This document shows, one piece after another, positions 1,425 to 41,308 of a stretch of 64,000 nt of DNA. The notes beneath the pieces are model-generated. The model was given only the letters and a program-made list of their open reading frames with translations, made no database searches and was not told the DNA's origin. Source of the stretch: Candidatus Hydrogenedentota bacterium. GTDB lineage: Bacteria; Hydrogenedentota; Hydrogenedentia; Hydrogenedentales; JAEUWI01. Each line of letters opens with the position of its first letter. Position 1 is the first letter of the stretch. The DNA lies in assembly GCA_016791475.1 (NCBI GenBank), contig JAEUWI010000022.1, positions 9,658 to 73,657 of the forward strand. Reading direction: 5' to 3'. The position numbers and the translations under genes were made by a program.

Positions 1425-1545
1425 ACAAAAACCCTCCACATGGCGCATGCCCAACCGAGATCCCGTAAATCCTCTAATGTTGGATATATAGGACCATATT
1501 CCACAACCAGAACCGGCACCGTCCGGTGTTTTTTCATATTGCACA

Positions 1546-1575
1546 CTTGTCAATAAACGACAAGATGCTTACAAT
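1546..1575 (+). promoter_or_regulatory. sigma70-type promoter TTGTCA-17-TACAAT with palindrome CTTGTC-N7-GACAAG over the -35
   Basis: TTGTCA at 1547-1552, a 17-nt spacer, then TACAAT at 1570-1575. The inverted repeat is 1546-1551/1559-1564. It lies about 120 nt upstream of ATG 1694. Confidence 0.4.
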
Positions 1576-1693
1576 AGAATTTCCACGGCGCAACTTCAGC
1601 GGTTTGCGCCTGGTCCAACTACGCTATACAACTTTACGCGCGCATTGCCACTCGCTGACCAGCCGCGCCCCCGCCCCAAGAAAGGTTTCCCCT

Positions 1694-3475
1694 ATGTATC
1701 GCAGGCTCCACCTCTTTTTCTCCATGATGATTGCAGGCCTTGCCACGGCCCAGGTGGGTACCCACCCGACGGTTCACGATGTGGCCGCCGGGGTGACGCA
1801 GCGACTCCAGGAGTCGCTCCCGGCGGAGCAACTGCTCAAGGTCTCGGTGGAGCAGGTGATGCCTTTCATAACGGAAGAGGACTGGAAGGTACTGGGTGAG
1901 AAGCACCTGTCCTTCCGCATCAACGTGCCGGCGACGGTCTACGTCTTCCGCGATTCGGAAGACCCCAACGTGGTGCATTGGCTCCCGGCGCGCGGCTTCG
2001 TAAACTCGGGGCTTTCGGTGAACACCGACAGTCAGGCTTTTGACGGGTGGTCGAAAGATTTTGAAGCCGGTGTGGTGGGTCTGGGCGTACCCTCCATCGA
2101 CGGCGACGCCGAGCACTACTTTGTGGTCGTCGCTCCGAAACAGAAAGAAGACGCCCTGAAAGTTACCGAAGTTACACCGGCGACCCACACGGCGGGCACG
2201 CTCGTCGCAGGCGAGCGCATCGGCGTCAGTTGGAATGACACAAAGGTCACCGAGGCGCCCGAAGCGCTGCGGGGAGCGCTGCTGCTGCGGGGCGATCCGA
2301 ACAAGCGACGCTCGGCCCGGCTCACCCAGATCTTCCAGACCACGGAATACCCCGCCACGCCCACGCCCGACCACGTGGTGTTGACCTGGGGCGACGATCC
2401 CACATGTACCCAGTCGATCCAGTGGCGCACAAGCACGGCCACCGAGAAGGGCCTGGTCCGCTATCGCACACAGGGGACGGAGCCCTGGGCGGAGCAGCAG
2501 GCCAAGACCCTGCGCCTGGAGAACCACAACACGGTGAACGATCCCCTTTCCAACTGGCATACCGTGTGCCTCAGCGGGCTCAAACCGGGCACCAAGTATG
2601 AGTATCAGGTGGGCACGGGAACGGAAGACGGCTGGATTGCGCCGGCGATGTTTGAGACTGCACCGGACAAGGCGGAGCCTTTTTCCTTCATATATCTTGG
2701 CGACGCGCAGGCGGGCTTCGACGAATGGGGCGAGTTGCTGCACCAGTGTTACCGGGAAAACCCCGAAGCGGCCTTTTATGTGATGGCGGGCGACCTCGTA
2801 AATCGCGGCAACGAACGGGCGGACTGGGATCGCCTCTTCCATAACGCCGAGGGAGTTTTTGACCACCGCCCGCTCGTACCCAGCATCGGCAATCACGAGG
2901 TCCAGGGCGACAAGGGTCCCTGGATGTATCTGGAATTGCTCGACCTGCCGAAGAATGGCCCGAAGGGAGTTACACCCGAGCGCGCCTACAGCTTCACCTA
3001 CGGCAATGTGCTCGTGATTTCGCTGGACGCGAATGTGGAGCCCGCCGAGCAAACGGAATGGCTGGAGAGCGAACTGAAAAATACGAAGGCGACGTGGAAA
3101 TTCGTGACCTACCACCAGCCCGCCTATTCCTCCGGCGCCAACCGCGACAATCCCGAGGTGCGCGAGCTCTGGGGCGCGCTCTTTGACAAGTATCACGTAG
3201 ACCTGGCGCTCCAGGGCCACGACCACGCCTATCTCCGCACCTGGCCCATGTACAACCAGAAACGGGTGGCCACGGCGGCGGAAGGAACGATCTACATCGT
3301 ATCGACATCGGGCACGAAGTACTACGATCAGGGCCAGTTCGACTACACCGAGGTGGGCTTCACAAATACCAATACCTACCAGGTGCTGGACATTAAAATC
3401 GATGGCGATACGTTGACCTACAAGGCCCATGGGGCGGACGGCAAGGTACTGGACCAGTTTGTCATCGAAAAGTGA
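1694..3475 (+). CDS. secreted metallophosphoesterase, purple-acid-phosphatase-like (unknown N-domain + FN3-like + calcineurin-like phosphoesterase)
   Basis: ORF 1526..3475 trimmed to ATG 1694 (signal MYRRLHLFFSMMIAGLATAQV). Metallophos motifs seen: YLGDAQ, AGDLVNRGNE, GNHE, VTYHQPAYSS, GHDHAY. Confidence 0.8.
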   Translation: MYRRLHLFFSMMIAGLATAQVGTHPTVHDVAAGVTQRLQESLPAEQLLKVSVEQVMPFITEEDWKVLGEKHLSFRINVPATVYVFRDSEDPNVVHWLPARGFVNSGLSVNTDSQAFDGWSKDFEAGVVGLGVPSIDGDAEHYFVVVAPKQKEDALKVTEVTPATHTAGTLVAGERIGVSWNDTKVTEAPEALRGALLLRGDPNKRRSARLTQIFQTTEYPATPTPDHVVLTWGDDPTCTQSIQWRTSTATEKGLVRYRTQGTEPWAEQQAKTLRLENHNTVNDPLSNWHTVCLSGLKPGTKYEYQVGTGTEDGWIAPAMFETAPDKAEPFSFIYLGDAQAGFDEWGELLHQCYRENPEAAFYVMAGDLVNRGNERADWDRLFHNAEGVFDHRPLVPSIGNHEVQGDKGPWMYLELLDLPKNGPKGVTPERAYSFTYGNVLVISLDANVEPAEQTEWLESELKNTKATWKFVTYHQPAYSSGANRDNPEVRELWGALFDKYHVDLALQGHDHAYLRTWPMYNQKRVATAAEGTIYIVSTSGTKYYDQGQFDYTEVGFTNTNTYQVLDIKIDGDTLTYKAHGADGKVLDQFVIEK

Positions 3476-3545: not shown

Positions 3546-3621
3546 AAACTAACACGCGGGAAGCATGCTTAACAACCTGCCCGCCCAGCGCTGTGTTCTT
3601 GATCATGAAAGGAATTCATTC

Positions 3622-5421
3622 ATGCGACGTTTAACGATCCTGGCCAGTCTACTTCTTGTGGCGGGCCTGGCCCAGGCCCACGTGGGCAATCATCCCTCGG
3701 TACACGATACCGTGGCCGCCATTATCGAGCGCTTCGCCCGGACCTTTCCCGCCGAGGAACTGAAAGGCTTCACGGTCGAGAAGGTGCTGGCCGCGCTCAC
3801 GGAGCAGGAGCGGGAGATTCTCGGTCAGGAGCACCTCATCTTTCGCGTCAACGTCCCCGTGACGGTATATGTACTCCGTGCGGAAGATATGAAGGAGGAG
3901 GTATTCTGGCTAGCGGAGCGCGGCTTCGAGAAGACCGCCTTGACCGTCGTCACCAACGAAGGTCCCTTTGTCGCCTGGAGCAAGGCCTTTCCTGCGGGCG
4001 AGGTCGGACTGGGGGTGAATTCCCTCAGCGGCGACGGCGACCACTACTTCGTGGCGATTGTGCCTCAGACACCCGGCGAGAAGGTCGAGCTGAGCGAGAT
4101 CTACCCCGGCCAGCATACGGTGGGCGCAATGAACGCCGGCGAGCGCATTTACTCAAGCTGGGACACGACGGTGCTCAAGGAAGTGCCCGAGGCGTTGGCG
4201 GGCCAGGTGATGCTGCGGGGCAATGAAAACGCCCGGCGCGCCGCACGACTCACCAGTGTCTACCAGGTTACAAAGTATCCCGCCACGGCGGCTCCCGATC
4301 AGGTGACCCTGACCTGGGCGAGCGATCCGAAGACGACCCAGGCCGTCCAGTGGCGCACGAGTACGGAAGTGGCGCAGGGCGCGGTGCGCTACCGCATCAA
4401 GAAGACAGCGGGCGCGGAACTGGCCGACAAGTGGATTACGGTGGCGGCCCAGACGAAGGCCCTGGTGAACCACAATACGATAAACGACCCTGCGGTGCAT
4501 CGCCACTCGGTCAATCTAATCGGCCTGGAGCCCGCGACGACCTATGAATACGAGGTGGGCGACGGAAGCATCACAGGCTGGACGACGCCCTTCGAGTTCA
4601 CCACCGCGCCCGAGAAGATCACGCCCTTCAAATTCATTTACATGGGCGACGCGCAGAACGGTCTGGACGCCTGGGGAAAACTGATTCACAATGCCTATTC
4701 AGAAGAGCCCGAAGCCGCCTTCTACATCATGGCGGGCGATCTGGTGAACCGGGGCAACGAACGGGACGACTGGGACGACTTCTTTCACAACGCCACGGGC
4801 GTCTTCGACCACCGCCAGTTGGTGCCCTGCATCGGCAATCATGAGAATCAGGGTGACCTCGGGCCGCGGATGTATCTGGAGCTCTTCGACCTCCCGAAGA
4901 ATGGCCCGGCAAACATTGCGCCCGAGCACGCCTACAGCTTCACCTACAGCAACGCCTTGTTCGTCGTGCTCGATTCCAACCTGCTTCCCGCCGATCAGGT
5001 GGAGTGGCTCGACGCGGAACTGGCGGCCTCCGACGCCACGTGGAAGTTTGTGGTGTATCACCACCCGGCCTATTCTTCCGGGGCGAGCCGGGACAATCCC
5101 GATGTGCGCAATATCTGGACGCCGATCTTCGACAAGTATCATGTCGATCTCGCCCTGCAGGGCCACGACCACGCCTATTTGCGCACCTGGCCCATGAAGG
5201 GCGATCAGAAAGTGGGGTCGGCAGCCGAGGGCACCATTTATATCGTTTCCGTGTCGGGCACCAAGTTCTACGAACAGGGCCAGTTCGACTACACCGAATT
5301 CGGCATGACCAATGTGGCCACGTACCAAGTGCTCGACCTTCGCATCGACGGCAACAAGCTGACCTACAAGTCCTATGACATCGAGGGCAAGGTACGGGAC
5401 GAGTTTGTGATCGAGAAGTAG
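3622..5421 (+). CDS. secreted metallophosphoesterase, tandem paralog of 1694..3475
   Basis: ORF 3565..5421 trimmed to ATG 3622 (signal MRRLTILASLLLVAGLAQA, AAGGA 9 nt upstream). Long identical runs with the upstream gene include FDKYHVDLALQGHDHAYLRTWPM, AAEGTIYIVS, QGQFDYTE and DLVNRGNER. Confidence 0.8.
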   Translation: MRRLTILASLLLVAGLAQAHVGNHPSVHDTVAAIIERFARTFPAEELKGFTVEKVLAALTEQEREILGQEHLIFRVNVPVTVYVLRAEDMKEEVFWLAERGFEKTALTVVTNEGPFVAWSKAFPAGEVGLGVNSLSGDGDHYFVAIVPQTPGEKVELSEIYPGQHTVGAMNAGERIYSSWDTTVLKEVPEALAGQVMLRGNENARRAARLTSVYQVTKYPATAAPDQVTLTWASDPKTTQAVQWRTSTEVAQGAVRYRIKKTAGAELADKWITVAAQTKALVNHNTINDPAVHRHSVNLIGLEPATTYEYEVGDGSITGWTTPFEFTTAPEKITPFKFIYMGDAQNGLDAWGKLIHNAYSEEPEAAFYIMAGDLVNRGNERDDWDDFFHNATGVFDHRQLVPCIGNHENQGDLGPRMYLELFDLPKNGPANIAPEHAYSFTYSNALFVVLDSNLLPADQVEWLDAELAASDATWKFVVYHHPAYSSGASRDNPDVRNIWTPIFDKYHVDLALQGHDHAYLRTWPMKGDQKVGSAAEGTIYIVSVSGTKFYEQGQFDYTEFGMTNVATYQVLDLRIDGNKLTYKSYDIEGKVRDEFVIEK

Positions 5422-15279: not shown

Positions 15280-15312
15280 ATGCCCGGACGGTGTTCGTCC
15301 GGGCATGTTTTA
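15280..15312. terminator. hairpin terminator between convergent yceI and flgL (probably bidirectional)
   Basis: Stem ATGCCCGGACG (15280-15290), loop GTGTT, stem CGTCCGGGCAT (15296-15306), then GTTTTA. An A-rich tract (AGTAAAG) precedes it, serving the opposite strand. Confidence 0.7.
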
Positions 15313-15333: not shown

Positions 15334-16257
15334 CTATGAAAGAAAATTGAGGAGGCTCGGCTGAATAACTCGGGCGCCGGCGTTGAGGGAGGCCTCCAAC
15401 GCATTGGACTGGGCATTCAGCTCCACGATGGTCTGGGCGTAGTCGGCGTCGATATTATCGGAGACCACGTCGAGCAACTGCAGGTTGATGTCCTGGAGAT
15501 TACTGTCTACCTGCTCGATGCGGTTCTGGATGGAACCGACGCGGGCCACAGAGATGAGCAGTTGGTCTTGCGCGCTGCTCAATTCACCGAGTCGTGTCTG
15601 AAGCGCCCCTGTGTTTCCCGCTTCGAGATTGTCCCGAATGTCCAGCAGCGTCTGGAAGATGTCGGCGCCACTGACCCCTGCGGCGGTAAAAACTCGGCTA
15701 CCGGGTTCGTTGGCATCTACTTGGATACCGTCCTGAATCTCCACCTTGAAGGTCTCATCGTTGCCGATGTAGGTCACCGACGTAACGCGCTGGTTGAGAT
15801 CGCGCGCGGCGGTAAAGGGTTCGGTCTGCGTGACGGTGCCGCCAAAAATGTAGCGGCCATTGTTCTCTTGATTGGCCTCGACCAGACTACCCTCCAGAAG
15901 TTGGTTGATTTCTATCGCAAGCTGGTCGAGTTGGAGTTGATCGTTCGTGCCATTGGCGCCCTGCAACGTGAGTTCCCGCGCCCGTTGTACAATATCGACC
16001 ATCGTTGTCAACGACGTCTCTGTCTCGCGGAGCCCCGGCCCGAGATTGCTGATGTTGGTGATATACTGCTCATTCTTCGTCACCTCCGTCCGCGCACTGA
16101 TGGCGCGTCGCGTGGCCAGCGTGTCATCACTCGGCCGGTTGACAATCTGGCCCGTGGCGAGCTGCTCCTGCAGGGCAAGAATTCTGCGTTGCTGAAGGTT
16201 GAGATTGCTCAGTACGCGGTCAATGAGCAACCGCTGTGTCGTTCGAACTGCACCCAT
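15334..16257 (-). CDS. flgL: flagellar hook-associated protein 3 FlgL
   Basis: Flagellin-type N-terminus (LSNLNLQQRRILALQEQLATGQIVNRPSDD) and C-terminus (ELNAQSNALEASLNAGARVIQPSLLNFL). About 300 aa, typical of FlgL and too short for FlgK. Confidence 0.8.
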   Translation of the reverse strand: MGAVRTTQRLLIDRVLSNLNLQQRRILALQEQLATGQIVNRPSDDTLATRRAISARTEVTKNEQYITNISNLGPGLRETETSLTTMVDIVQRARELTLQGANGTNDQLQLDQLAIEINQLLEGSLVEANQENNGRYIFGGTVTQTEPFTAARDLNQRVTSVTYIGNDETFKVEIQDGIQVDANEPGSRVFTAAGVSGADIFQTLLDIRDNLEAGNTGALQTRLGELSSAQDQLLISVARVGSIQNRIEQVDSNLQDINLQLLDVVSDNIDADYAQTIVELNAQSNALEASLNAGARVIQPSLLNFLS

Positions 16258-16267
16258 GATCGGGGCT

Positions 16268-16795
16268 TTATCCTCTCTGGTCTACCATCGCGGGCACGGA
16301 GTGCACGCGAACAATTTCACCGCCCGTACCGTCGTAGGCACCGCCCGCACCGGGTTCGCACAGGGCCATGGCGGCCAGGGTCTGGTTCACCACATAGAGC
16401 GAGCGGCGCAACACCCGGTTGTTCTCGCGAACCAGGCGGCGCGTGGTTTCCAGGGTGGCGCGCATCAGCACCTGAAATTCCTGCATCCGCTGGCGCCAGG
16501 GCTCCGGAACCGCCGCGATGAGGCCACTCAACGTCTGGGCGTCGGCGGGCAGGGCGTAGTGGTCGACGACCGCACGAACGAGGGCCAGCCGCACCTGCTC
16601 GGCGGCGATGGCCTGGCGAAGCAACACGTGGAGCGCGGCGGTCTTGGCCTCCAGATACTCGTGATCCTGCGCCCGGGCACCCTGGCCCATGGCGCGGCAG
16701 ACCGCCAGCACGTTCTGCTGGCGCTCCAGTTCGTCGTCGAAATGTTCGCAGAGATGATCAAGAAGATCTTCTATCGACATGTCCCGGGTATTCAT
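16268..16795 (-). CDS. flgN: FlgN-like flagellar export chaperone
   Basis: All-helical 175-aa protein with a FlgN-like pattern (LLDHLCEHFDDELERQQNVLAVCR ... RENNRVLRRSLYVVNQTL). It sits directly upstream of flgL. ATG 16795 or GTG 16798 overlaps the stop of the preceding ORF. Confidence 0.55.
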   Translation of the reverse strand: MNTRDMSIEDLLDHLCEHFDDELERQQNVLAVCRAMGQGARAQDHEYLEAKTAALHVLLRQAIAAEQVRLALVRAVVDHYALPADAQTLSGLIAAVPEPWRQRMQEFQVLMRATLETTRRLVRENNRVLRRSLYVVNQTLAAMALCEPGAGGAYDGTGGEIVRVHSVPAMVDQRG

Positions 16796-17139
16796 CACGA
16801 CGCCGCTCCCGTCTGCCCGAGCAGGGCCTTCTTGTATTCTTCGCTGGTGAGCATCCCGTCGCGATTGGCGTCGAGACGTTCAAAGACGCTCCGCTCCATG
16901 CCGCTCTCCGAGAGTCGGAGGCTGCCGTCCCCGTCTACATCGCGCTGGTGCATGAAGCGCGCCGTTTCTTCTTCCGCACGGGCCTTTCGGGCTTCCGGAC
17001 TGGATGAAGCCTCGATCTGGGCCTTCAGAATCTCCGAAAAGGCCTCGTCGGTCACTCTGGGCTGCTTGACGGCCTGAACCAGGTCCGACGCATTCTTGAT
17101 CAACGCGCTGGCCGCGCCAATACCGCTTAACAGGTTCAT
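16795..17139 (-). CDS. small EF-hand pair protein (114 aa) in the flgM position
   Basis: ORF 16795..17250 trimmed to ATG 17139 (GGAGG with a 5-nt spacer). There are two canonical 12-residue loops, DVDGDGSLRLSE and DANRDGMLTSEE. The stop overlaps the flgN start. Confidence 0.7.
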   Translation of the reverse strand: MNLLSGIGAASALIKNASDLVQAVKQPRVTDEAFSEILKAQIEASSSPEARKARAEEETARFMHQRDVDGDGSLRLSESGMERSVFERLDANRDGMLTSEEYKKALLGQTGAAS

Positions 17140-17185
17140 GGCAACCTCCAAAATCCTTCCAGACGCTCCGGCCTGGATATCTGTT

Positions 17186-17212
17186 TTATCGGCAGCATCG
17201 CCGAAAGCTTCA
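17186..17212 (-). promoter_or_regulatory. sigma28 (FliA)-type promoter TGAA-N15-GCCGATAA
   Basis: The minus strand reads cagTGAAGCTTtcggcgatgctGCCGATAAaacag. The -10 is an exact GCCGATAA (17186-17193). The -35 octamer matches TAAAGTTT at 6/8. It lies in the 112-nt flgJ/EF-hand gap, about 45 nt before ATG 17139. Confidence 0.6.
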
Positions 17213-17251
17213 CTGGTCACTGCCGCCGCCCCCCAGAGGGGCCGGCGCACT

Positions 17252-17734
17252 TTATTGATTGCTTCGATAACTTTCGTGGGCGCGCGCGAGGGAAATCCCC
17301 GCGGGGTGCGTCGGATTAAGCTTCACCCCGCCTCCGACCTGGGGCACCGGCAGGCCCGTCGCCTCGTCGGGCACGGCAATGCCCTTGCGTTCCCGAACCA
17401 GGGAAATGCCCCAGGCGTCCAGGGCTCTGTCGGGCTTCGTCAAATCGCCCGCCGACGCGTGCAACTGCTTCGCCATCTGCTCGGCAACGCCAAGTTGCCC
17501 GGACGCGGCCATTTCCCCCGCCACGAAGTCATCCATCATTTCTTCGAAGTAGGCCTTCTGCGCACCGCTGTCAAAGAAACCATAGTCGGGGACGGTCTTA
17601 CGCATCTCCTTGAGCATCTGAAAGAGGAAGAGTTGTTCGTACTGCTTGAGGGCTTCCGCCTCGCGGCCTTTGGCACCGGGCGTCAGCTCCATGGCCTTGA
17701 AACCCGACTGACTCTGGGGATTGACGTACAACAT
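17252..17734 (-). CDS. flgJ: flagellar rod-binding protein (FlgJ N-terminal domain only, no muramidase domain)
   Basis: Rod-binding pattern EALKQYEQLFLFQMLKEMRKT ... YFEEMMDDFVAGEMA ... GVAEQMAKQL. Only 160 aa. The start overlaps the flgI stop by 1 nt. Confidence 0.75.
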   Translation of the reverse strand: MLYVNPQSQSGFKAMELTPGAKGREAEALKQYEQLFLFQMLKEMRKTVPDYGFFDSGAQKAYFEEMMDDFVAGEMAASGQLGVAEQMAKQLHASAGDLTKPDRALDAWGISLVRERKGIAVPDEATGLPVPQVGGGVKLNPTHPAGISLARAHESYRSNQ

Positions 17735-18828
17735 CAGCGGATTTCCAGCGCGGCTTCGAGAGCGCCCGCCTTGTGGATGGCATCGAAGATGGCGATCATG
17801 TCCCTCGGCGTGAGACGCAACGCGTTGAGGGCCTGGGCCACTTCGGCGGCCGAAGTGCCTTGAACTGGTGCGAGGTAAACTTCCGGTTCCTCGACTTCCA
17901 CGTCCGCATTCTCCACCACAATCGGCTCCGCATCCGTAAAGGGCAGTGCGGGCACGGGTGTCGCGGTCGTGGCAATCTTTACTGTCAAGCTGCCGTGGGC
18001 GACCTGACAGGGCTTGATCATGACATCGCCGCCAACGACGATGGTGCCGGTCCGCTCATTGATGATAACCACGGCGGGCTGCTCAACGTCCACCTTCAGT
18101 TTGTTGAGCTCGGCAATGAAGGCGATGAGGTCGCCCTGCTTCTCCAGGGGAATCTTGACCCGCACCGCGCCGCCGGACAGGGCATCGGCCGTGCCCTCGC
18201 CGTAGAGTAGATTAATCTGTTCGCGGATCCCGTCCGCCGCTTCAAAGCTGGGGTTCTTCACCAGGAGCGTAAGGCGCTCGCCGTCCGTGATGGATGCGGG
18301 CACTTCCGTTTCCACCAGGCCCCCGCCCGGAATGCGCCCGACGGTGCCGTGGTTCTTGCGTACCGAGGTGCCCGAGGAAACGTCCGAGTCAAACCCGCCC
18401 ACCGAAACCGGGCCGCTGGCCACGGCGTACACCGTGTCGCCGGAAGGTCCGCGCAGATAGGTTTCGAGTAGCTGGCCGCCTTCGATCGTCTTGGCGTCAT
18501 AGATCGACTGTACGGTTACGTCGATGGTGGTGCCCTCCTTGGAAAAGGGCGGCAGGGTGGCGGTAACCGTGCAGATGGCCACGTTCTTCGAACTCAGCGT
18601 GTCCAGATCCTGAATATCGAGACCGAGTCGGTCGAGGACGTTCTTCTGGGCGAGCGTAGCCGCTTCCGCGCTGTCGCCCGTACCGCGCAGGCCCACAACG
18701 ATGCCGACGCCGCTGAGCGTGTTGTCACGCGCGCCCTGAACGTCGCAAAGGTCGCGAATGGCCATGGCGGCGTGGGTGTTGGCGCCAATGACGAGTGTCA
18801 GGAGGGCTGTATAGATTCTCAGTTTCAT
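17734..18828 (-). CDS. flgI: flagellar P-ring protein FlgI
   Basis: ORF 17734..18975 trimmed. ATG 18828 (MKLRIYTALLTLVIGANTHAAMA) has GGGAG about 10 nt upstream; ATG 18837 is an alternative. Hallmark IRDLCDVQGARDNTLSGVGIVVGLRGTGD. Confidence 0.9.
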   Translation of the reverse strand: MKLRIYTALLTLVIGANTHAAMAIRDLCDVQGARDNTLSGVGIVVGLRGTGDSAEAATLAQKNVLDRLGLDIQDLDTLSSKNVAICTVTATLPPFSKEGTTIDVTVQSIYDAKTIEGGQLLETYLRGPSGDTVYAVASGPVSVGGFDSDVSSGTSVRKNHGTVGRIPGGGLVETEVPASITDGERLTLLVKNPSFEAADGIREQINLLYGEGTADALSGGAVRVKIPLEKQGDLIAFIAELNKLKVDVEQPAVVIINERTGTIVVGGDVMIKPCQVAHGSLTVKIATTATPVPALPFTDAEPIVVENADVEVEEPEVYLAPVQGTSAAEVAQALNALRLTPRDMIAIFDAIHKAGALEAALEIR

Positions 18829-18914: not shown

Positions 18915-19556
18915 TTAGAACGGCGAGAACCAGTCGAGCACCCGTGTTACCAACCCACGGCGCTGGTTGTTCCACAGGGGCCCTTTGCCTTTGACGAGCA
19001 CGCTGGCATCGGCGACCTGGGTCGACTGGATCGTATTCTGCGCCGTGATATCCTTGGATCGGATAATGCCGCTGACCGTGACGATGGAGTCGTCGCGATT
19101 CACCGTAACTTGCTTATCACCCGATATCTTCAGGTTGCCATTGGGAAATACTTCCACGACCGTACACGTGATGGAGGTTGTCAGTGTGTTGCGGCGTCGG
19201 GTATCGCCCGTGTTCTTGGTTTCATTTTCCGACTGAATGTCCCAGTTGGGAAGTTCGCCCGGATTGAGAATGTTGTTGCCGTCGGGCTGCTCGGCCACGA
19301 GGAAGGGGTTCGCGGCGGCGGCGGCATCCGCCTTGACGTCGCTTTCTTTCTTCGTGTTGGTGCCGGCGCTGGTCGTGGCATTCAGGGTTTCGCGGACGAT
19401 CACGGTGACGATGTCGCCCACTTCAAAGCGATCCAGCTTCTCGGACACCGTGGTGGCGTCCTTGGCGGTTTGCTGGGAGAAAAGGGAATCCGCCGGCGCG
19501 CCGGAGGCCAACGCCGCGAGCACCACGGCCGTCAAGAATTTGTTTGTGTGCTTCAT
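18915..19556 (-). CDS. flgH: flagellar L-ring protein FlgH
   Basis: ORF 18915..20126 trimmed to ATG 19556 (ATGA overlap with the flgA stop). Signal MKHTNKFLTAVVLAALASGA. FlgH pattern VGDIVTVIVRE ... ITCTVVEVFPNGNLKISGDKQVTVN ... VSGIIRSKDI. Confidence 0.9.
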   Translation of the reverse strand: MKHTNKFLTAVVLAALASGAPADSLFSQQTAKDATTVSEKLDRFEVGDIVTVIVRETLNATTSAGTNTKKESDVKADAAAAANPFLVAEQPDGNNILNPGELPNWDIQSENETKNTGDTRRRNTLTTSITCTVVEVFPNGNLKISGDKQVTVNRDDSIVTVSGIIRSKDITAQNTIQSTQVADASVLVKGKGPLWNNQRRGLVTRVLDWFSPF

Positions 19557-20521
19557 CGTACCTCCACTACCCCATCCGCGCGCACCACGCCCTGGAATTC
19601 TTCCTTGGTTACGGGATTGGCGCACACGATGACATCGCCTTCTTTCCCGTCCATCATGGCTTTCGCCTGATGCTGAATCTTGATGACCGAGGTGCTCAGT
19701 TCCACCGGCACCATCTGATTGCGCTTGATCAGGCGGCGCAACTCCACCACGCGGGTGGTCACCGGCTGCCCGGGAAAAATGGTCTTGCGCGCAACGAGGC
19801 CTTCCACCTCCGACATGTCCGTCACTGCCCCATCCGGCGCCGTGGCGAGAGAGACGGTCTGCATGACAAGCTGGCTTGCCGATACGGGACGCCCCCGGGG
19901 AATGTCGGCCGCGGCCACGACGATTTCCTGGTAGGTATCGATCGATGCGCGCAGGACAACGGTCCTGTAGAGCGCCCCATCGATCAGAACGTTTCCGCGA
20001 AAGTTGGCCGGACCCACGAATTTGTACTGGGGACTGGCGCGCCACTCGATGGTCATTTCCCCTTCCGGCGTCATGAGGTTCTGACGGGGCAGAGGCACGT
20101 CGATCTCGGTGACCTCCGGGTCCCACGGCATTTCCAGTTCAATGTACTCCCGCAGGGAGGCCGCCATGGCCTCCGGCGTCAGTTCGATCGACAGGGTCGT
20201 AGCGCGAATTTGTGAAGGACGATCAGGGTCCAGTTCGCCCAAATCGACGCCCGCATGCTCCAGGCGCGCTTCAACAAGGCTGGCGGTCAACTGCTTGGAC
20301 GCGCCGGGCACCGCGGCGCCCGAAACCTCGATGGTCGCCAGACGCTCCATGAGTTCCGGCTCCTTCACCTCCACTAGATCGCTCAGGTAGACCTTGGGGC
20401 CTTTCACGAGAACTTCGTCCTTTATCTTTACGGTGCTCGCTTCATCCGCGGGCGCGATCACGGCGAAGAGCAGGCACAACGCCGCGCCGAGGGCTCTTCT
20501 CAAGTTGCTTCGCTGGTTCAT
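19553..20521 (-). CDS. flgA: flagellar basal-body P-ring formation chaperone FlgA
   Basis: Signal peptide. The C-terminal SAF/FlgA pattern is present (VVAAADIPRGRPVSASQL ... GLVARKTIFPGQPVT ... LIKRNQMV). It sits between flgG and flgH. Confidence 0.8.
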   Translation of the reverse strand: MNQRSNLRRALGAALCLLFAVIAPADEASTVKIKDEVLVKGPKVYLSDLVEVKEPELMERLATIEVSGAAVPGASKQLTASLVEARLEHAGVDLGELDPDRPSQIRATTLSIELTPEAMAASLREYIELEMPWDPEVTEIDVPLPRQNLMTPEGEMTIEWRASPQYKFVGPANFRGNVLIDGALYRTVVLRASIDTYQEIVVAAADIPRGRPVSASQLVMQTVSLATAPDGAVTDMSEVEGLVARKTIFPGQPVTTRVVELRRLIKRNQMVPVELSTSVIKIQHQAKAMMDGKEGDVIVCANPVTKEEFQGVVRADGVVEVR

Positions 20522-20543: not shown

Positions 20544-21332
20544 TTAACGCCGTACGTTGTTGGCGGTCTGAAGCATTTCGTCGGCGGTCTGGATTACCTT
20601 GGAATTGGCTTCATAGGCCCGCTGCGCAATGATCATCTGAAGGATTTCTTCCACCACCTGCACATTGGAGTTTTCGAGGAAGCCCTGAGTGAGTGTGCCC
20701 AGACCTTCAAGACCGGGCGTGGCCGGTGTGGGCGGGCCGGAAGCATCGTTTTCCATGAGCAGGTTGCGGCCCAATCGGGCATCGAGGCCCGCGGGATTCG
20801 GGAAGCGAACGAGTTCGATGTTGCCCACCTGGGTGGTTACGTTGCCGGGTTGGATGACGGAAACGGTGCCATCGGGGCCGATGTTTACCACTTCGGCGTC
20901 GTCGGGAATAACGATGTTGTCCGCAAGCAGATAACCGTCCGCGGTGAGCACCTGACCTTCGGCGTTTACCTTGAAGGCGCCGTCACGGGTGTAGCCCGTT
21001 GTGCCGTCGGGCAGGGTAATCTGGAAAAATCCTTCACCCTCGATGGCAAGGTCAAAGGGATTGCCGGTCTGAATGGAGCCGCCCTGGGTGTGGAGCTTGG
21101 CGATGGACGAAGGCCGCACGCCATGGCCAATCTGGATGCCCTCGGGGATGGTGGTGCCGTTGGCGGTCTGGGTTCCGGCGGGCTTGATGGTCTCGTAGAG
21201 AAGGTCCTGGAAGTTCACGCGGCTCTTCTTGAAACCGGTGGTGTTCACGTTCGCCAGGTTGTGGGCGATGGTGTCGATGTTCATCTGCTGGGCAATCATG
21301 CCGGTGGATGCGGTGAACAGTGAACGTATCAT
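20544..21332 (-). CDS. flgG: flagellar distal rod protein FlgG
   Basis: MIRSLFTASTGMIAQQMNIDTIAHNLANVNTTGFKKSR at the N-terminus. The C-terminus reads FLENSNVQVVEEILQMIIAQRAYEANSKVIQTADEM. GAGGAG lies 6 nt upstream. Confidence 0.9.
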   Translation of the reverse strand: MIRSLFTASTGMIAQQMNIDTIAHNLANVNTTGFKKSRVNFQDLLYETIKPAGTQTANGTTIPEGIQIGHGVRPSSIAKLHTQGGSIQTGNPFDLAIEGEGFFQITLPDGTTGYTRDGAFKVNAEGQVLTADGYLLADNIVIPDDAEVVNIGPDGTVSVIQPGNVTTQVGNIELVRFPNPAGLDARLGRNLLMENDASGPPTPATPGLEGLGTLTQGFLENSNVQVVEEILQMIIAQRAYEANSKVIQTADEMLQTANNVRR

Positions 21333-21365: not shown

Positions 21366-22121
21366 TTACTGCGCGGCCACCTGATCGATCAGACGGCTGG
21401 TCGCGCCGTCTATGGCTTGAATAACTTTCTGATTGGCCTCATAGGCGCGGAGACCCAGCATCATGCTCGTCATTTCAACGGGAAGCTGGACGTTGGACAT
21501 CTCAAGGGCCCCTTGAACCAGAGCCGTTTCCGTGGCCGCGCCGCTCTGCTGGAGAACTTCGTCGCTGGCCCGATACAGATTGTCGCCCTCCCGCTCCAGT
21601 CGGGTGGGGTCCTGGAATTCAACGATTTGAATCTGTCCAGAGTCCGCCCCGTCCACCCGGACGGTACCGTCCTGGTCAATGGTGATCTTGGCGCCGGACA
21701 CGGCGATGGGGGCGCCGGTTGCGCCGAGGACCTTGTAGCCCTCGGCGGTGGCGAGTTCGCCCTGGGCGTCCATGGTGAAGTGTCCGTCCCGTGTATAGCG
21801 CTCGCCCTGGGGGGTGTTGACCACCACATAGCCGGGCCCGGTGACCGCCAGGCTGAGCGGATCCTCCGTGATCCGCAGGGAGCCCGGGGCAAGATTGGTG
21901 AAGGTCTCCACGCCTTTCACGCCGCCGGCCGGTGCGGCTTCGCGGTTGAAGTGAAAGGGGCTAATCATTTTTGGCGAGAGTACTTCGTAGAAGCCGAGCT
22001 GCACGGGCTGCAATCGTTTGTACCCGGGGGTCGCCGCGTTGGCCAGATTGTTGGCCACGATATCCTGCCGCTGCTCGACGGCGATCATGCCGCTTGCCGC
22101 TGTATACAGGCCGGAAATCAT
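21366..22121 (-). CDS. flgF: flagellar proximal rod protein FlgF
   Basis: MISGLYTAASGMIAVEQRQDIVANNLANAATPGYKR at the N-terminus. The C-terminus reads ALEMSNVQLPVEMTSMMLGLRAYEANQKVI. 251 aa. AGGAGA lies 8 nt upstream. Confidence 0.8.
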   Translation of the reverse strand: MISGLYTAASGMIAVEQRQDIVANNLANAATPGYKRLQPVQLGFYEVLSPKMISPFHFNREAAPAGGVKGVETFTNLAPGSLRITEDPLSLAVTGPGYVVVNTPQGERYTRDGHFTMDAQGELATAEGYKVLGATGAPIAVSGAKITIDQDGTVRVDGADSGQIQIVEFQDPTRLEREGDNLYRASDEVLQQSGAATETALVQGALEMSNVQLPVEMTSMMLGLRAYEANQKVIQAIDGATSRLIDQVAAQ

Positions 22122-28877: not shown

Positions 28878-29801
28878 ATGAACTACTCCACACGCATCAA
28901 GATAGCGGCGGTCTTCTCCTTGCTGATCCATGCAGCGGGGGTTGGACTGCTGCGTCAAACCTACACTCCCCGAGAGTATATCCCCGCCGCCGCGCCAGAA
29001 CCAATCGTCCTGGATCTGCAACCCGAGGCGCAGCCGTCTCCCCCGCCACAGCAGTTTGTCGATGTGGCGACGCCGGCGGAAGCGCCGCCCCAGGTCACGG
29101 AACATATCGCCGTGGAAAACGCCGAAGCGATGGATCTGGCCCTGCGGGAAGCCGAGCGACCCGCGCCCGCGCTGGAGGAAGACGAATTCGACGCGCTGCC
29201 CCAGCCGGTTGCGCCGCCCGCGCCGCCGGAGCCGGATACGACATCGCCCGCCCAGGAGTCGAAGGAGGAGACAGAGAAGAAGGAAGAGACCAGGACGAAG
29301 GAGCCGGTACGCGAGGTCGAAACGCCCGCGAAAGAGGAACTTCCCGAAGCCGAGGAGACGCCGCCCGCTCCGAAAGCGCCGGAGGGCCCCATCAAGATCG
29401 CGCAGGCACAGCCGATGCCGGCCCAGCGCCCGGAAAAGGGCAAGACCCGCGAGCGTGGCGGCGTCAGCAAACAGGGCCAGACGAATTTTGACGCGATCCA
29501 GAGCGAGATCGCGCCGTATTTGAAGCATGTGCGGGAACGGGTCGAGCAACAGTGGAACCAGATGCTCTATACCCGCTATTCGGGCACATCGCCGGTGAAA
29601 GCCGTCATCGATTGCGCCATCAACGCGGAAGGCGAGTTGGTATCGGTCAATGTGGTGGGCACGGACAATGACAAACTTTACAGCGCGTTGTGTCGGGACG
29701 CGGTGCAGCGCGCGGGCCCCTTCGGGCCGTTCCCTTTTGAAGTGCCCGACATTTACCGGGGCAAGAATCTTGAGATTCGATGGACCTTCAGCTTCCTGTA
29801 G
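28878..29801 (+). CDS. TonB/TolA-like protein (N-terminal anchor, Pro/Glu/Lys-rich linker, C-terminal TonB-like domain)
   Basis: TM IKIAAVFSLLIHAAGVGLL. A Pro-rich spacer (PEPIVLDLQPEAQPSPPPQQ ... PVAPPAPPEPD). A C-terminal globular domain. An extended -10 (TGcTATACT, 28844-28852) lies upstream. Confidence 0.55.
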   Translation: MNYSTRIKIAAVFSLLIHAAGVGLLRQTYTPREYIPAAAPEPIVLDLQPEAQPSPPPQQFVDVATPAEAPPQVTEHIAVENAEAMDLALREAERPAPALEEDEFDALPQPVAPPAPPEPDTTSPAQESKEETEKKEETRTKEPVREVETPAKEELPEAEETPPAPKAPEGPIKIAQAQPMPAQRPEKGKTRERGGVSKQGQTNFDAIQSEIAPYLKHVRERVEQQWNQMLYTRYSGTSPVKAVIDCAINAEGELVSVNVVGTDNDKLYSALCRDAVQRAGPFGPFPFEVPDIYRGKNLEIRWTFSFL

Positions 29802-29873
29802 CCGTCGAAATCCATAGTGAAAGAAACCCGCCGGCGGAATACCGGCTTGCCGATGACAACACAAGGATTGAGC

Positions 29874-30497
29874 ATGTCTGACTTTCTCGAAATGATCCGC
29901 CAGGGCGGTTGGCCGATGATCCCGCTGGGCCTGGGCTCGCTGGCGGCCCTGACGGTGGTCCTCGAACGCGCCTTTGCGCTGCGCCGCGACAAGGTCATCT
30001 CGCCGGAGATCGTCCGGATTCTCCATGAGTTTGGCAACCCGGACGGGAGTTCGCCCTCCCACTCGCTTGCGGTGTGCCAGCGTACGCCGGGCGCCTTTGC
30101 GCGTATCGCGGAGGAGTTGATCCAGTTGCGCCACTTGAGCCACGCCCAGTTGCTGGAGACAATGCACGCCGTGGGACGCACCCACGTGGCGCGCCTCGAA
30201 CGGGGCTTGACCATGCTGGAAATCATCGCGAATGTGAGCCCCCTGATCGGTCTCCTGGGTACGGTGCTCGGGATGGTGACGGTATTCGACGCCGTAACGG
30301 CTCAGGGCCTGGGCAATCCCCAGATTCTGGCGGCGGGCATATCTCAGGCGCTGGTCACCACCATCGCGGGTCTGTGCGTGGCGATTCCCGCACTGGCCTT
30401 TCACGGGTTCTACAGCAAGCGCGTGGACGAGCTTGCGATCGAGATGCAGGAGCGCGCTACGGCCTTCCTGGCCAAGCTCCATACGCCCGACGCGTGA
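29874..30497 (+). CDS. MotA/TolQ/ExbB proton-channel family protein
   Basis: ORF 29817..30497 trimmed to ATG 29874 (AAGGA 7 nt upstream). Pattern GGWPMIPLGLGSLAALTVVLER ... LIGLLGTVLGMV ... GISQALVTTIAGLCVAIPA. Confidence 0.85.
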   Translation: MSDFLEMIRQGGWPMIPLGLGSLAALTVVLERAFALRRDKVISPEIVRILHEFGNPDGSSPSHSLAVCQRTPGAFARIAEELIQLRHLSHAQLLETMHAVGRTHVARLERGLTMLEIIANVSPLIGLLGTVLGMVTVFDAVTAQGLGNPQILAAGISQALVTTIAGLCVAIPALAFHGFYSKRVDELAIEMQERATAFLAKLHTPDA

Positions 30498-30506
30498 CCC
30501 GCGGGC

Positions 30507-32804
30507 TCAGCTCCGTGCGACGGGATCGAGCAGATCGCGCATGACCGCCTGGATATTGAAGAGCTCGAAGGGCTTTGGAAGAAACGCCGCAACACGACCG
30601 GGCTCGAACTCGTGCTCGATGGATTGGCGCATGTAGCCGCTGGCGATGATGATGGGCACTTCGGGAAAGCGGCGTTTGAATTCCGCGCAGGTGGCGTCAC
30701 CGCTCATCCCGGGCATGGAGTGATCGAGGATAATGCATTGAAGGCGGTCGCCGTGCTGGTCGGCGCGCGTGAGGGCCTCCTCCCCATCGTCCGCCGTGAC
30801 GACATCGAGGCCGACGTGCTTCAGCATCATGGCGCCAACGGAGCGCACGGTCTCCTCGTCGTCGGCCAGGAGCACGGTGCCTTGGCCGTGCCAGTCGCCA
30901 AGCACTTCCCCCTGCGCGAAATGGCTCTTGGCCGACGTGGCCTGAACGGGAAAATAGAGGCTGACGCGCGTTCCCCGGCCGGGCGCGGTGTCCAGCCGAA
31001 GCGCGCCCTTGTGACTGCGGACGATGCCGAGTACGGCGGGGAGCCCCAGCCCCCGACCGGCGAATCGGGTGGTGTAGAACGGATCGAAAATCTTTTCCAC
31101 GATCTCCGCCTCCATGCCGCACCCGGTATCGCTGACCTCAAGCACGACGTAGTCGCCCGCCGGCAGGGGTTCGGGCAGATAGGTGCCCTGCAGGAACTCC
31201 TCGCTGCAATGCTCCATTCCGGTGCGGACTCGCACGGCGCCCTGCGCTTCGTCGAGCGATTCGGAGGCATTGGTGACCAGATTCACAAGGATCTGGCGGA
31301 ACTGGGCCATGTCGCCCTCGAGCTCGGGCAGGTTGGGGGTGAGTTCGCACTCGAAGCTTGCCGTGCGCGTGACCGAAGCCCGCAGGAGGGGCATCATTTC
31401 CGACACGAGTTCATTCAGTCTGAAAGGTTCGGAGAAAAATTTCCCACGCCCGGAGTACGCCAGCATCTGGCGGCACAACTCGGCCGCGCGGCGGGCCGAC
31501 TGGGTGATGCCCTCCATGTAGCGATGGAGCTCGCCGCCCTCGGGAAGCCCGAGCTGGGCCAACTCGGCATTGCCCATGATGCCGGTCAGAATATTGTTGA
31601 AATCGTGGGCGATTCCGCCGGCCATGACGCCCAGGCTCTCCATTTTCTGGGCCTGCTGCACTTGCGCCTCCAGAATGGCGCGCTGTTGCATGACACAGCG
31701 CCGGTCCCAGGCCGAAAGAAGGATTTCACCGATCATGCGGAGGAGCGGTATCGTCTCTTCGGGCCATTCCGCAGCCCTGTCTTCGCTGTCGAGGCCGATA
31801 TAGCCGCGTAGCCGACTGCTGGAAAGTATGGGCACCCGGACCAGCGATAAAATCTTGTTTTGTTCCACCCACCGCCTTTCGAACTCCGCCTCCGGCGGCA
31901 ACCCACCCGCGGAGGGAATGACGATACACTCGCCGCGGTCCAGCGCGTCCAGGGACCACTTGAAATCATCTTCGGTGACGCCCTGAAGGGCTCCGGCCAG
32001 CGACCGAACCCCGTCGCGGCACCATTCGAATCGCTCATTTTTTCCGGCCAGGGAGACGCGGGAGACGACAAAGTAGACGCGATCAACCCTGGTAAAGGAG
32101 CCGACCAGTTCCAGGGAGTGCCGAATCTCTCCATCGACCTCGTCCTGACCCAGATTGATAAAGCGGGTCGAGATGCCGGTGGCGAGATTCTCGAAGGCCA
32201 CGCGCCTCGCGAGGACTTCGGCGGTGCGGTTGCTCAGGGCAAGGGCTTCTTCCTTTTCCCGCCCTTCGAGAATCAGTTGGAGGCGCATGCGGGTTGCGTG
32301 GAGGATGGATAGATAAAAACCGCACAGCATGAGTACGAAGCCGGGATAGAGGAGCATATCGTCGAGGTGGGCGAAGTAGCTCCAACCCTCGGGCCCCACG
32401 ACGGGTACGTGACGCAGCGATGGGAGAACTTCGAGAAAGCCGACGAGTTGGGAGAGGCCTATCATCAAGGCGCCGGACACGACAAGATGGGAGATTCCGG
32501 GGATGTAGTGGCGCACGAAAATGCCGTAAACCACCATGCCACACAGGATGACCGACCCGGCGAGGAACACGCCGCGAAACATGACATCGGTGTGGCGACC
32601 GGTCGACTCGCACCAGTAACTGACGATGAACACCACCACGGTCAGCAGGGTTGCGACCACCTCGGGAAAGCCCGTGCCCTCACGAAGGCTTCGCAACACA
32701 GGCTTCACGCTTGAGGGAATCAAAAACCGTATCTCCCGATCATCAAAGACGTCACTACACAGGACTTGGAATTTGCAGCGCCACGCCCAATCGGAGGACT
32801 GCAA
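30507..32804 (-). CDS. hybrid sensor histidine kinase/response regulator (4 TM - GAF-like - HisKA - HATPase_c - REC)
   Basis: H-box GGIAHDFNNILTGI. N/G boxes LVNLVTNASES, DTGCGM, GRGLGL. REC has VLLADDEE and IILDHSMPGMSG. The only start upstream of TM1 is TTG 32804 (GGAG 9 nt upstream). Confidence 0.85.
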   Translation of the reverse strand: MQSSDWAWRCKFQVLCSDVFDDREIRFLIPSSVKPVLRSLREGTGFPEVVATLLTVVVFIVSYWCESTGRHTDVMFRGVFLAGSVILCGMVVYGIFVRHYIPGISHLVVSGALMIGLSQLVGFLEVLPSLRHVPVVGPEGWSYFAHLDDMLLYPGFVLMLCGFYLSILHATRMRLQLILEGREKEEALALSNRTAEVLARRVAFENLATGISTRFINLGQDEVDGEIRHSLELVGSFTRVDRVYFVVSRVSLAGKNERFEWCRDGVRSLAGALQGVTEDDFKWSLDALDRGECIVIPSAGGLPPEAEFERRWVEQNKILSLVRVPILSSSRLRGYIGLDSEDRAAEWPEETIPLLRMIGEILLSAWDRRCVMQQRAILEAQVQQAQKMESLGVMAGGIAHDFNNILTGIMGNAELAQLGLPEGGELHRYMEGITQSARRAAELCRQMLAYSGRGKFFSEPFRLNELVSEMMPLLRASVTRTASFECELTPNLPELEGDMAQFRQILVNLVTNASESLDEAQGAVRVRTGMEHCSEEFLQGTYLPEPLPAGDYVVLEVSDTGCGMEAEIVEKIFDPFYTTRFAGRGLGLPAVLGIVRSHKGALRLDTAPGRGTRVSLYFPVQATSAKSHFAQGEVLGDWHGQGTVLLADDEETVRSVGAMMLKHVGLDVVTADDGEEALTRADQHGDRLQCIILDHSMPGMSGDATCAEFKRRFPEVPIIIASGYMRQSIEHEFEPGRVAAFLPKPFELFNIQAVMRDLLDPVARS

Positions 32805-38322: not shown

Positions 38323-39387
38323 ATGAGTGAAGCATCCAGCCACCCCGCAATTTTTGAGCAGATCGTGTCGAGCCTGTCGAGCGGCGTGCTGGCGGTGGAC
38401 GCGCAGGGCCTGGTAATAACCGCAAACAAGGCGGCCGCCGTGCATCTGAACGTCGCCGCGGAGTTTCTCGCGCCCGGTCAGCGCCTTGATGCGATTCCGG
38501 ATGCCTCCCTTCCCCTGATGCGCCTGATGGACGAACTGCGGGATCACCTTGAGACGGTCTCGCGCCGCGAAGTCACGGTGACAACCGCCGAAGGCACTAC
38601 CGTGCTCGGTATTACGGCGTCGCCTCTGCAGGGAGCGCAGGAATTCAACGGTGTCATCTTCCTTTTCCTCGATATCACGGAATTGCGGCGTCTGGAAAAG
38701 ATGGCGGAGCTGAACCGCCAGCTTGCGCAGATTGGTGAGCTTACGGCGGGAGTGGTGCATGAACTGCGCAACCCCCTCAGTGTCATCAGCGGGATGGCTG
38801 AATTGCTGATACGCAAGAGCGTCGCGGACGACCCGGTTCACAGCAAGGCCAGGACCATCCTGACGGAGGCCGGGCAGATGGAACAGTTGGTGAGCCAGTT
38901 CCTGAGTTTTGCGAAGCCTTTTTCGCTGAAACCGGAAGCTTGCCTACCCCAGACGATCATCGAGCGCTCCATAGCCCTGGCGTCGCCAGTCGCCGAACAG
39001 TACCGTATCGCGCTGGATTGCGTGACCCAGGACGATCTACCGGAAATACTGGCGGACGCCTCCAAACTGGCCCAGGCCCTGAGCAATATCCTTCGCAATG
39101 CGGTGGAGGTGAGCCCCGCGGGAAAGCGGGTGACCTTCCGCACATCGCTGGCGGGGGATTTCATTCTGTTCCGGGTAGAGGATGAAGGTCCGGGCATTCA
39201 TCTGGAAGAGGGCGACGATTTGTTTTCCGCCTTCTTTACGAAAAAAGCCGGTGGAACGGGGCTCGGCCTATCGATCGTGCACCGGATTATCACGACCCAC
39301 GGCGGCACGATCAGCTACGGCAATCTGCCTGAATCCGGCGCGTTCTTCGAGGTGCTCGTACCCCGCGATCTGACCGCCTCAGTTTAG
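38323..39387 (+). CDS. PAS sensor histidine kinase (NtrB/AtoS-like), orphan
   Basis: ORF 37954..39387 trimmed to ATG 38323 (GGGAGG upstream). H-box AGVVHELRNPLSVI. N box LSNILRNAVE. G boxes EDEGPGI and GTGLGLSIV. No adjacent response regulator. Confidence 0.85.
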   Translation: MSEASSHPAIFEQIVSSLSSGVLAVDAQGLVITANKAAAVHLNVAAEFLAPGQRLDAIPDASLPLMRLMDELRDHLETVSRREVTVTTAEGTTVLGITASPLQGAQEFNGVIFLFLDITELRRLEKMAELNRQLAQIGELTAGVVHELRNPLSVISGMAELLIRKSVADDPVHSKARTILTEAGQMEQLVSQFLSFAKPFSLKPEACLPQTIIERSIALASPVAEQYRIALDCVTQDDLPEILADASKLAQALSNILRNAVEVSPAGKRVTFRTSLAGDFILFRVEDEGPGIHLEEGDDLFSAFFTKKAGGTGLGLSIVHRIITTHGGTISYGNLPESGAFFEVLVPRDLTASV

Positions 39388-41229: not shown

Positions 41230-41308
41230 GGGCGGCTCAAACTTGGAAAATCGAAACAGGTCCATCCGGACCAATGCGGAAAACTGTACCGTGACCTCTT
41301 GTGCACCA

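Follow-up and report, generated by a model that had tools for sequence, protein, structure and literature searches.

In Escherichia coli, the gene order flgA-flgM-flgN places the gene for the anti-sigma-28 factor FlgM, a small protein of ~100 amino acids (aa), directly upstream of flgN and behind a sigma-28 promoter. XopAW of Xanthomonas is a type III-exported Ca2+-binding EF-hand effector, and lanmodulin is a compact EF-hand protein that is unfolded without metal and folds upon binding (PMC9907080). Early flagellar subunits carry two export signals, i.e., small non-polar residues near the N-terminus and, 30 or more residues into the chain, a gate-recognition motif, which in Salmonella FlgD is 36-FLTLL-40 (PMC8983047). 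Here, we compare with these systems a gene, referred to as X, that encodes an EF-hand protein of 114 aa and is located between flgJ and flgN in a 64,000-nucleotide (nt) stretch of DNA from a Candidatus Hydrogenedentota bacterium (GenBank assembly GCA_016791475.1, contig JAEUWI010000022.1, positions 9,658 to 73,657 of the forward strand; this whole stretch is called the window). The sequence available to us comprised these 64 kb of the source genome and flanks of ~8 kb at related loci. Overall, the results are best explained if X is an accessory protein of the late flagellar stage that is specific to one lineage of Hydrogenedentota.

A preliminary description of this DNA had noted a 114-aa open reading frame (ORF) between flgJ (stop at 17252) and flgN, a strong ribosome-binding site in front of it and a TGA overlapping the flgN start, and we found the same on all three points. 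X (16795..17139, minus strand, stop included) extends from an ATG at 17139 to a TGA at 16797-16795 and begins 112 nt after flgJ. By sequence reading, its ribosome-binding site is the GGAGG at 17145..17149 on the minus strand, separated from the ATG by the 5-nt spacer TTGCC, and GGAG at this place is kept across an alignment of seven loci. The stop codon lies within cGTGATGaat, in which flgN starts either at the GTG at 16798 (4-nt overlap) or at the ATG at 16795 (1-nt overlap). Overlaps of 1 or 4 nt were found in the window and in the related loci L001-L003, L005, L006, L008, and L010, and in deeper lineages X and flgN are separated by 2-12 nt with no overlap. These data support that the translation of X is coupled to that of flgN in the clade of the window. 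A longer ORF of 151 aa starting at the GTG at 17250 was ruled out as the X gene, because it would cover the promoter and because the homologues all start at the M of MNLL.

Using a word-indexed search, we identified 25 relatives of X with lengths of 86-116 aa and 53-97% identity. When 1.84 billion representatives were searched with a profile, most matches were multi-EF-hand proteins, but a further 18 relatives, short and full-length, were recovered at 32-42% identity, and a second profile search added further members, giving a family of more than 55 proteins with 31-97% identity. All members with a named organism are proteins from 'Candidatus Hydrogenedentes' metagenome-assembled genomes, and the locus records are Hydrogenedentales or Hydrogenedentota metagenome-assembled genomes. 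The X-bearing genomes also include a complete chromosome, OW818658.1. In every readable X locus, including those of members with 31-40% identity to the protein of the window, the gene order is flgJ-X-flgN-flgL, usually after flgF-G-A-H-I, and no family member was found in any other gene context among the loci read. In an alignment of 55 members, M1, D67, E78, F86, D90, G95, and E101 are invariant and L4, A17, V21, P27, F34, D71, L74, S79, and G80 are near-invariant. For close pairs, the ratio of nonsynonymous to synonymous substitutions (dN/dS) was 0.04-0.10, which points to strong purifying selection. Because the family is conserved and because this selection is strong, we conclude that X is a real gene. 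The distribution of the members supports that the family is lineage-specific and confined to Hydrogenedentota.

The sigma-28 consensus is TAAAGTTT-N11-GCCGATAA. Upstream of X, on the minus strand, we identified a match to this consensus, TGAAGCTT-N11-GCCGATAA (17186..17212), in which the -10 element is perfect and the -35 element has 6/8 matches. Within the window, this FliA/SigD-type site at 17212-17186 is unique, while 0.08 such sites are expected by chance, and the sequence TGCCGATAA ahead of X is a putative start-site element. The intergenic DNA averages only 52% identity among seven related loci, yet the blocks TGAAG and TGCCGATAAA are invariant. More broadly, 24 of 25 Hydrogenedentota loci have the pattern T.AAG-N14/15-TGCCGATA[AT] in front of X or, in loci that lack X, in front of flgN (the record of L009 ends at X). 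The variants GCCGATAT and GCCGATAG occur among these loci, with GCCGATAG carried by L023, and in some lineages the sigma-28 element lies inside flgJ or overlaps its end. The idea that the gene sits behind a FliA promoter is thus well supported at the sequence level by an element that is near consensus, unique within the window and conserved across Hydrogenedentota loci. We take these results to support that X is the first gene of an X-flgN-flgL unit transcribed from a conserved sigma-28-type promoter.

Between the flgJ stop and this promoter, the minus strand has a GC-rich hairpin (17219..17251; -22.1 kcal/mol as calculated with RNAfold), which may act as a terminator or an insulator for the upstream flgFGAHIJ transcript. 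Hairpins of different sequence were found in the equivalent place in L002, L006, and L008 (-14 to -18 kcal/mol), and none in the deeper lineages.

Two textbook 12-residue EF-hand loops spaced 23 residues apart had been recognized in X in the preliminary description, and profile comparisons bear this out. Loop 1, DVDGDGSLRLSE, comprises residues 67-78 (16906..16941, minus strand) and is followed by the near-invariant S79-G80; loop 2, DANRDGMLTSEE, comprises residues 90-101 (16837..16872, minus strand) and lies inside the stretch that best matches Pfam, residues 84-106. The start-to-start distance of 23 residues is common among bacterial EF-hand repeat proteins. When tested against the Pfam EF-hand models (PF13202/PF00036), X scored 29.2 bits for EF-hand_5 and 26.0 bits for EF-hand_1, which is above the gathering cutoffs of 25.9 and 25.4 bits, respectively, and 27/27 family members matched four EF-hand models. 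The residue pattern that had been noted in the loops of X is a genuine property of the family. In the 55-member alignment, D1 and E12 are present in 55/55 members in both loops; position 3 is D or N in 53/55 (loop 1) and 55/55 (loop 2); position 5 is D, N, or S in 55/55; G6 is present in 49/55 (loop 1) and 55/55 (loop 2); and position 8 is always L, V, or I. D90, G95, and E101 of loop 2 are each found in 55/55 members.

AlphaFold modelling based on 24 sequences gave a mean predicted local distance difference test (pLDDT) score of 65, with values below 50 over residues 1-28, and no usable fold matches, lanmodulin being the top but not significant one. With 55 sequences, the mean pLDDT increased to 73, with values of ~84-90 over residues 51-100 and of ~90 for loop 1. 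In the 55-sequence model, helices are predicted for residues 48-66, 83-89, and 99-106, and a beta-bridge between the strands formed by residues 73-75 and 96-98 joins the two loops, as would be expected for a paired helix-loop-helix lobe. Using Foldseek, we found that this model matches EF-hand lobes only (probability 0.99-1.0, E-values near 0.1), including those of sarcoplasmic Ca-binding protein, calmodulin, troponin C, and lanmodulin. Similarly, a profile search of PDB sequences with the X family returned EF-hand proteins only, over residues 83-112. The repeat is of a compact type, and 1751 library proteins match the X profile at E<=1e-10; many of these are multi-repeat proteins that align with both loops in register. 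These results support that X carries a canonical EF-hand pair, from which it is predicted to bind Ca2+.

We compared this pair with the two described EF-hand systems. X resembles lanmodulin and other compact EF-hand repeat proteins of the EF-hand_5/EF-hand_1 type in having 12-residue DxDxDG...E loops ~23 residues apart. Unlike these proteins, X has two loops only, lacks a signal peptide, carries an N-terminal module of its own, and is encoded in a flagellar operon. Membership of the lanmodulin family (NCBIfam NF053806) was ruled out, as X scored 17 bits against a cutoff of 135 and has no Pro at loop position 2 (V68 and A91 instead). XopAW (NCBIfam NF041410) is the best NCBIfam match of X. Membership of this family was ruled out as well, because the match reached 23 bits against a cutoff of 120 and involved the EF-hand region only; moreover, XopAW belongs to an injectisome rather than a flagellum and has no homology to X outside the loops.

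Based on column counts in the 55-member alignment, residues 1-45 (17005..17139, minus strand) constitute a family-specific N-terminal module with the pattern M-x-[LI]-L-x-G-[IV]-G-A ... L-V-[RQ]-x-[LVI]-K-x-P-[KR]-[VLI] ... F-x-x-[ILVM]-L-x-x-Q-[LMI]. These residues are conserved to the same degree as the EF-hand loops and are followed by a linker that varies in sequence and length. Over residues 1-45, no match was found in Pfam, the PDB, or the fold library, and a profile search showed that the module is unique to proteins in the flgJ-flgN position. In blocks of residues 1-30, the AlphaFold pLDDT was 36-46 with 24 sequences and 51-55 with 55 sequences. Hence, the predicted architecture of X is an N-terminal module of low predicted order (residues 1-45), a variable linker, and a compact EF-hand pair (residues ~48-106).

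Neither of the two sequence libraries had a name for the family beyond 'hypothetical' or 'EF-hand'. A literature search combining EF-hand, flgN, and flagellar found no paper that links the three, the papers that mention both EF-hand and FlgM were unrelated, and the literature on motility in Hydrogenedentes/Hydrogenedentota has no treatment of X. The preliminary description had called the protein not a described flagellar component, and this still stands, as we found no literature tying EF-hand proteins to flgN or FlgM in bacteria. We conclude that X is an undescribed flagellum-linked protein in which an EF-hand pair and a new N-terminal module have been recruited into a late flagellar operon.

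The preliminary description had also proposed that X occupies the flgM slot of the operon. In a survey that was anchored on FlgI and therefore unbiased toward X, we obtained nine Hydrogenedentota loci and one Pirellulales locus. X was present in five of these loci (L012-L016) and absent from L017, L018, L019, and L021. In these four, the stretch of ~50 nt from flgJ to flgN-flgL contains the sigma-28 promoter and no further gene. Metagenome-assembled genomes that lack X are JADLGB01, JADLCA01, JAFGTL01, and JAWXCN01. The Pirellulales locus L020 has the order flgJ-flgN-flgK-flgL with nothing between flgJ and flgN. Thus, as a conserved slot, the flgM slot did not survive the comparison, because four Hydrogenedentota loci and the Pirellulales locus lack a gene between flgJ and flgN. 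The synteny comparison was mixed in the same way: the order flgJ-X-flgN-flgL is constant in the X-bearing loci, while loss of the ORF from relatives with the same operon, which the preliminary description had named as evidence against its proposal, is partly borne out by the four loci without X.

In a neighbour-joining tree of FlgI and FlgL, the loci without X are monophyletic in 500/500 bootstraps. The topology in which X was gained once, with the clade without X as the sister, was recovered in 229/500 replicates versus ~238/500 for topologies in which this clade is nested among X-bearing loci, as for a single loss. Because the loci without X keep the promoter and flgN-flgL, the comparison supports that the conserved and ancestral unit is P(sigma28)-flgN-flgL and that X is an optional, lineage-specific first gene, which was added or lost. 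An optional first gene in turn weakens the positional argument for replacement of FlgM. Moreover, since a sigma-28 promoter has to be controlled in the clade without X as well, the phylum probably has an anti-sigma factor gene at some other place.

Direct comparisons with FlgM agree with this. In a Pfam search, X had no FlgM match at E<=1, and 0/27 family members matched PF04316 at E<=10. Alignment of the X family with E. coli FlgM (annotated K-12 record) using hhalign gave a probability of 0.1%, and no FlgM chain was found in the PDB profile search. The preliminary description could see no FlgM-like C-terminal pattern in X, and neither could we, since the PDB and fold matches were to EF-hand proteins only. 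Where FlgM has sigma-28-binding helices in its C-terminal half, X has the EF-hand pair; the N-terminus of X is highly conserved and that of FlgM is not; and X, unlike an anti-sigma factor of the operon, is not present wherever the sigma-28 late operon is present, being missing from the sister clade that keeps the promoter. By sequence and profile comparison, X is not a FlgM homologue. What the two proteins have in common is their small size, an N-terminal part that in X is of low predicted order, and the position directly upstream of flgN under a sigma-28 promoter; here, the geometry agrees with that of E. coli flgA-flgM-flgN, as had been pointed out for enterobacterial flgMN operons. Altogether, the relatives without X make a plain replacement of FlgM by X unlikely, while leaving room for a regulatory role.

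What, then, might X do? We propose, tentatively, that X is a cargo or cofactor of flagellar type III export that is made with FlgN and that binds Ca2+ and folds after export; we regard this as possible, although short of an even chance. An export substrate is proposed because X has no Sec signal, no Cys, a non-polar N-terminus, and an FxxΦΦ motif fixed ~34 residues in. Specifically, a Sec or Tat signal peptide was ruled out, as X is without a basic n-region and many members have D/E at positions 2-5. Five to eight of positions 2-10 are small non-polar residues, as in the early substrates FlgD, FlgE, and the rod proteins, which have non-polar residues near the N-terminus. The motif F34-S-E-I-L38 (17026..17040, minus strand) resembles the gate-recognition motif of early flagellar export substrates; F34 is present in 54/55 members, and FxxΦΦ starts at residue 34 in 25/27 members and at residue 33 or 36 in the other two. 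In X and in early substrates alike, an FxxxΦ motif is found ~34-40 residues in, i.e., FSEIL at 34-38 in X, FLTLL at 36-40 in Salmonella FlgD, and FLTLLVAQL in E. coli FlgD. In the window, FlgG (F41QDLL) and FlgF (F44YEVL) have motifs similar to that of X. As judged by short-motif matches only, X would therefore have both signals of an early substrate. The X family has 0 Cys in 3215 residues, and in a control with proteins of the window, the type III-exported FlgF, FlgG, FlgJ, and FlgL have 0 Cys, while there are 3 in FlgN, which is cytoplasmic, and 2 and 3, respectively, in FlgA and FlgI, which are Sec-exported. We consider the cysteine-free composition and the export-like motifs as hints toward export, not proof.

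On this proposal, X would be produced with FlgN at a ratio of 1:1, and FlgN might also hand it over. It would be metal-free and loosely folded in the low-Ca2+ cytoplasm; once exported to the periplasm or the cell exterior, it would take up Ca2+ and fold, and there it could act at the hook-filament junction or on the filament, or as a secreted factor. For metal-driven folding of this kind, lanmodulin (PMC9907080) is a precedent.

Several observations weigh against export. The motifs from which export is suggested are short and weak. When the X family was aligned with E. coli FlgD using hhalign, the sole aligned segment was X 34-45 with FlgD 35-46 (FLTLLVAQLKNQ) at a nonsignificant E-value of 0.14. 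Homology of X to FlgD or the rod proteins was ruled out, as the resemblance is at the level of the motif with no significant profile similarity, and X is without the domains of axial proteins. The main problem is that an early (rod/hook) type of motif is combined with a late (sigma-28) promoter; once the specificity switch has taken place, X might no longer be exported. Type III N-terminal signals are usually poorly conserved, and residues 1-45, being strongly conserved, look more like a surface that binds a specific partner. Finally, the clade without X keeps the same operon, and X is therefore dispensable there for flagellum assembly.

In a second explanation, X stays in the cytoplasm as a Ca2+ sensor or adaptor. 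Its EF-hand pair would sense cytoplasmic Ca2+, and its conserved N-terminal module would contact FlgN, the export gate, or a different component of the late stage, so that late export or assembly is tuned to Ca2+. We consider this explanation doubtful but worth weighing. It would account for the absence of a Sec signal, and a module that is more conserved than usual export signals suggests folding upon partner binding; similarly, the translational coupling to flgN suggests a 1:1 complex, and the EF-hand lobe resembles the lobes of calmodulin-type sensors, which bind helical peptides. However, compact bacterial EF-hand repeat proteins of the X type are mostly extracytoplasmic, and the cysteine-free composition is like that of the exported flagellar proteins of the operon and unlike that of FlgN.

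A third explanation is that X is a functional analogue of FlgM without sequence relationship to it, i.e., that it acts on sigma-28 as an anti-sigma factor, retains FliA up to completion of the hook-basal body, and is exported. The size class, the position relative to flgN, and a promoter that by its sequence is sigma-28-dependent, as for the class 3 flgM, would fit, as would the low predicted order of the N-terminus. In addition, no canonical FlgM was found in the window, where ~40 further ORFs include neither fliA nor flgM, or within +/-8 kb of any related locus. Nevertheless, we consider an analogue of FlgM unlikely. The part of X that corresponds to the sigma-28-binding region of FlgM is an EF-hand lobe, in line with the negative profile comparisons. 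The monophyletic clade keeps the sigma-28 promoter without X and must therefore control sigma-28 in some other way, and in the Pirellulales outgroup, flgN directly follows flgJ. Lastly, the 64 kb of the window are a small part of a genome of perhaps ~8 Mb, and a normal flgM is likely to be located elsewhere.

A broader version, in which X is a Ca2+-responsive late-stage checkpoint that, as an exported non-homologous FlgM analogue or as a partner of FlgN, links sigma-28 activity or the export of junction proteins to calcium, we regard as similarly improbable. The lack of a visible canonical FlgM, the fit of promoter and position, and the export-like features allow it, while the lack of X in the sister clade speaks against an essential checkpoint role. 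The last explanation is that X is a passenger without a function in the flagellum, i.e., a small Ca2+-binding protein of a generic kind whose gene came to lie in the operon. It agrees with the absence of X from one clade with an otherwise identical operon and with the abundance of EF-hand proteins in Hydrogenedentota and elsewhere. We consider it very unlikely, given that all loci read, down to 31-40% identity, have X between the promoter and flgN, that no family member was found in other contexts, that purifying selection on X is strong, and that only proteins encoded at this position have the N-terminal module.

With X, an EF-hand protein is linked with a sigma-28 promoter and with the gene for the FlgK/FlgL chaperone across a deep lineage of an uncultured phylum. 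We know of no EF-hand protein within a bacterial flagellar regulon, and our literature search found none; a checkpoint protein would be the first EF-hand component of any such regulon. If X is exported, as we tentatively propose, it would represent a new class of flagellar type III cargo, the folding of which is possibly driven by extracellular Ca2+; the logic would be that of RTX proteins, with another secretion system. As a regulator, X would couple late expression of flagellar genes, or late export, to Ca2+. We note that the value of these findings is limited in that the family does not extend beyond uncultured bacteria and that one clade lives without X.

The flagellar genes around X are all on the minus strand. 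The upstream block consists of flgF (21366-22121), flgG (20544-21332), flgA (19553-20521), flgH (about 18915-19556), flgI (17734-18828), and, as its last gene, flgJ (17252..17734; PF10135, 49.3 bits), and the order flgF-G-A-H-I-J is identical in all related loci. Downstream of X are flgN (16268..16798; chaperone family, PF05130, 34.7 bits) and the last gene of the unit, flgL (15334..16257; hook-associated protein 3, TIGR02550, 238.7 bits). Next after flgL is a terminator-like hairpin at 15306-15280 (15280..15306, minus strand) of 11-12 base pairs with a T-rich tail on both strands, which is shared with a convergent yceI-like gene.

FlgJ of the window has the rod-binding domain only and no muramidase. 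Across loci, FlgJ varies from 106 to 185 aa (window; L015, 9092-9649; L017-L019 and L021), and a C-terminal extension of ~50 aa in the clade of the window is missing in the clade without X. In every Hydrogenedentota locus (window; L001-L019, L021, and L023-L025), flgK is absent from the flgN-flgL unit and must therefore sit elsewhere in those genomes. In these loci, flgN is directly followed by a flgL of 303-307 aa, while the Pirellulales locus L020 has flgN-flgK(675 aa)-flgL(395 aa). In the deeper lineages, a conserved lipoprotein-like ORF of ~170 aa (...VEKVKYDFGIGEKPEGYE...) is located downstream of flgL, directly or within ~1.5 kb (L015, 11648-12163; L017, 5439-5993; L018, 5705-6217; L019, 12408-12920; L021, 11061-11630); in the clade of the window, the convergent yceI-like gene is found in its place.

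Elsewhere in the window, a gene on the minus strand encodes a sigma factor of the extracytoplasmic function (ECF) type (40582-41319), which is not FliA. It is followed by two ORFs without a Pfam match (39961-40560 and 39379-39912, minus strand), which could encode anti-sigma partners of the ECF sigma factor. Tandem paralogues at 1526-3475 and 3565-5421 (both plus strand) encode metallophosphoesterases like purple acid phosphatases (Pur_ac_phosph_N and Metallophos). Two signalling proteins with FHA domains are encoded at 35391-37031 (minus strand) and 45753-47633 (plus strand); the pair consists of an FHA-GAF-adenylate/guanylate cyclase and an FHA-sigma-54 activator (AAA+ with HTH_8). Finally, TonB_2-like and MotA/ExbB-family genes adjoin a gene for a hybrid histidine kinase with a receiver domain (28878-30497, plus strand; 30507-32804, minus strand), and the MotA/ExbB-family protein appears closer to ExbB/TolQ than to a flagellar stator.

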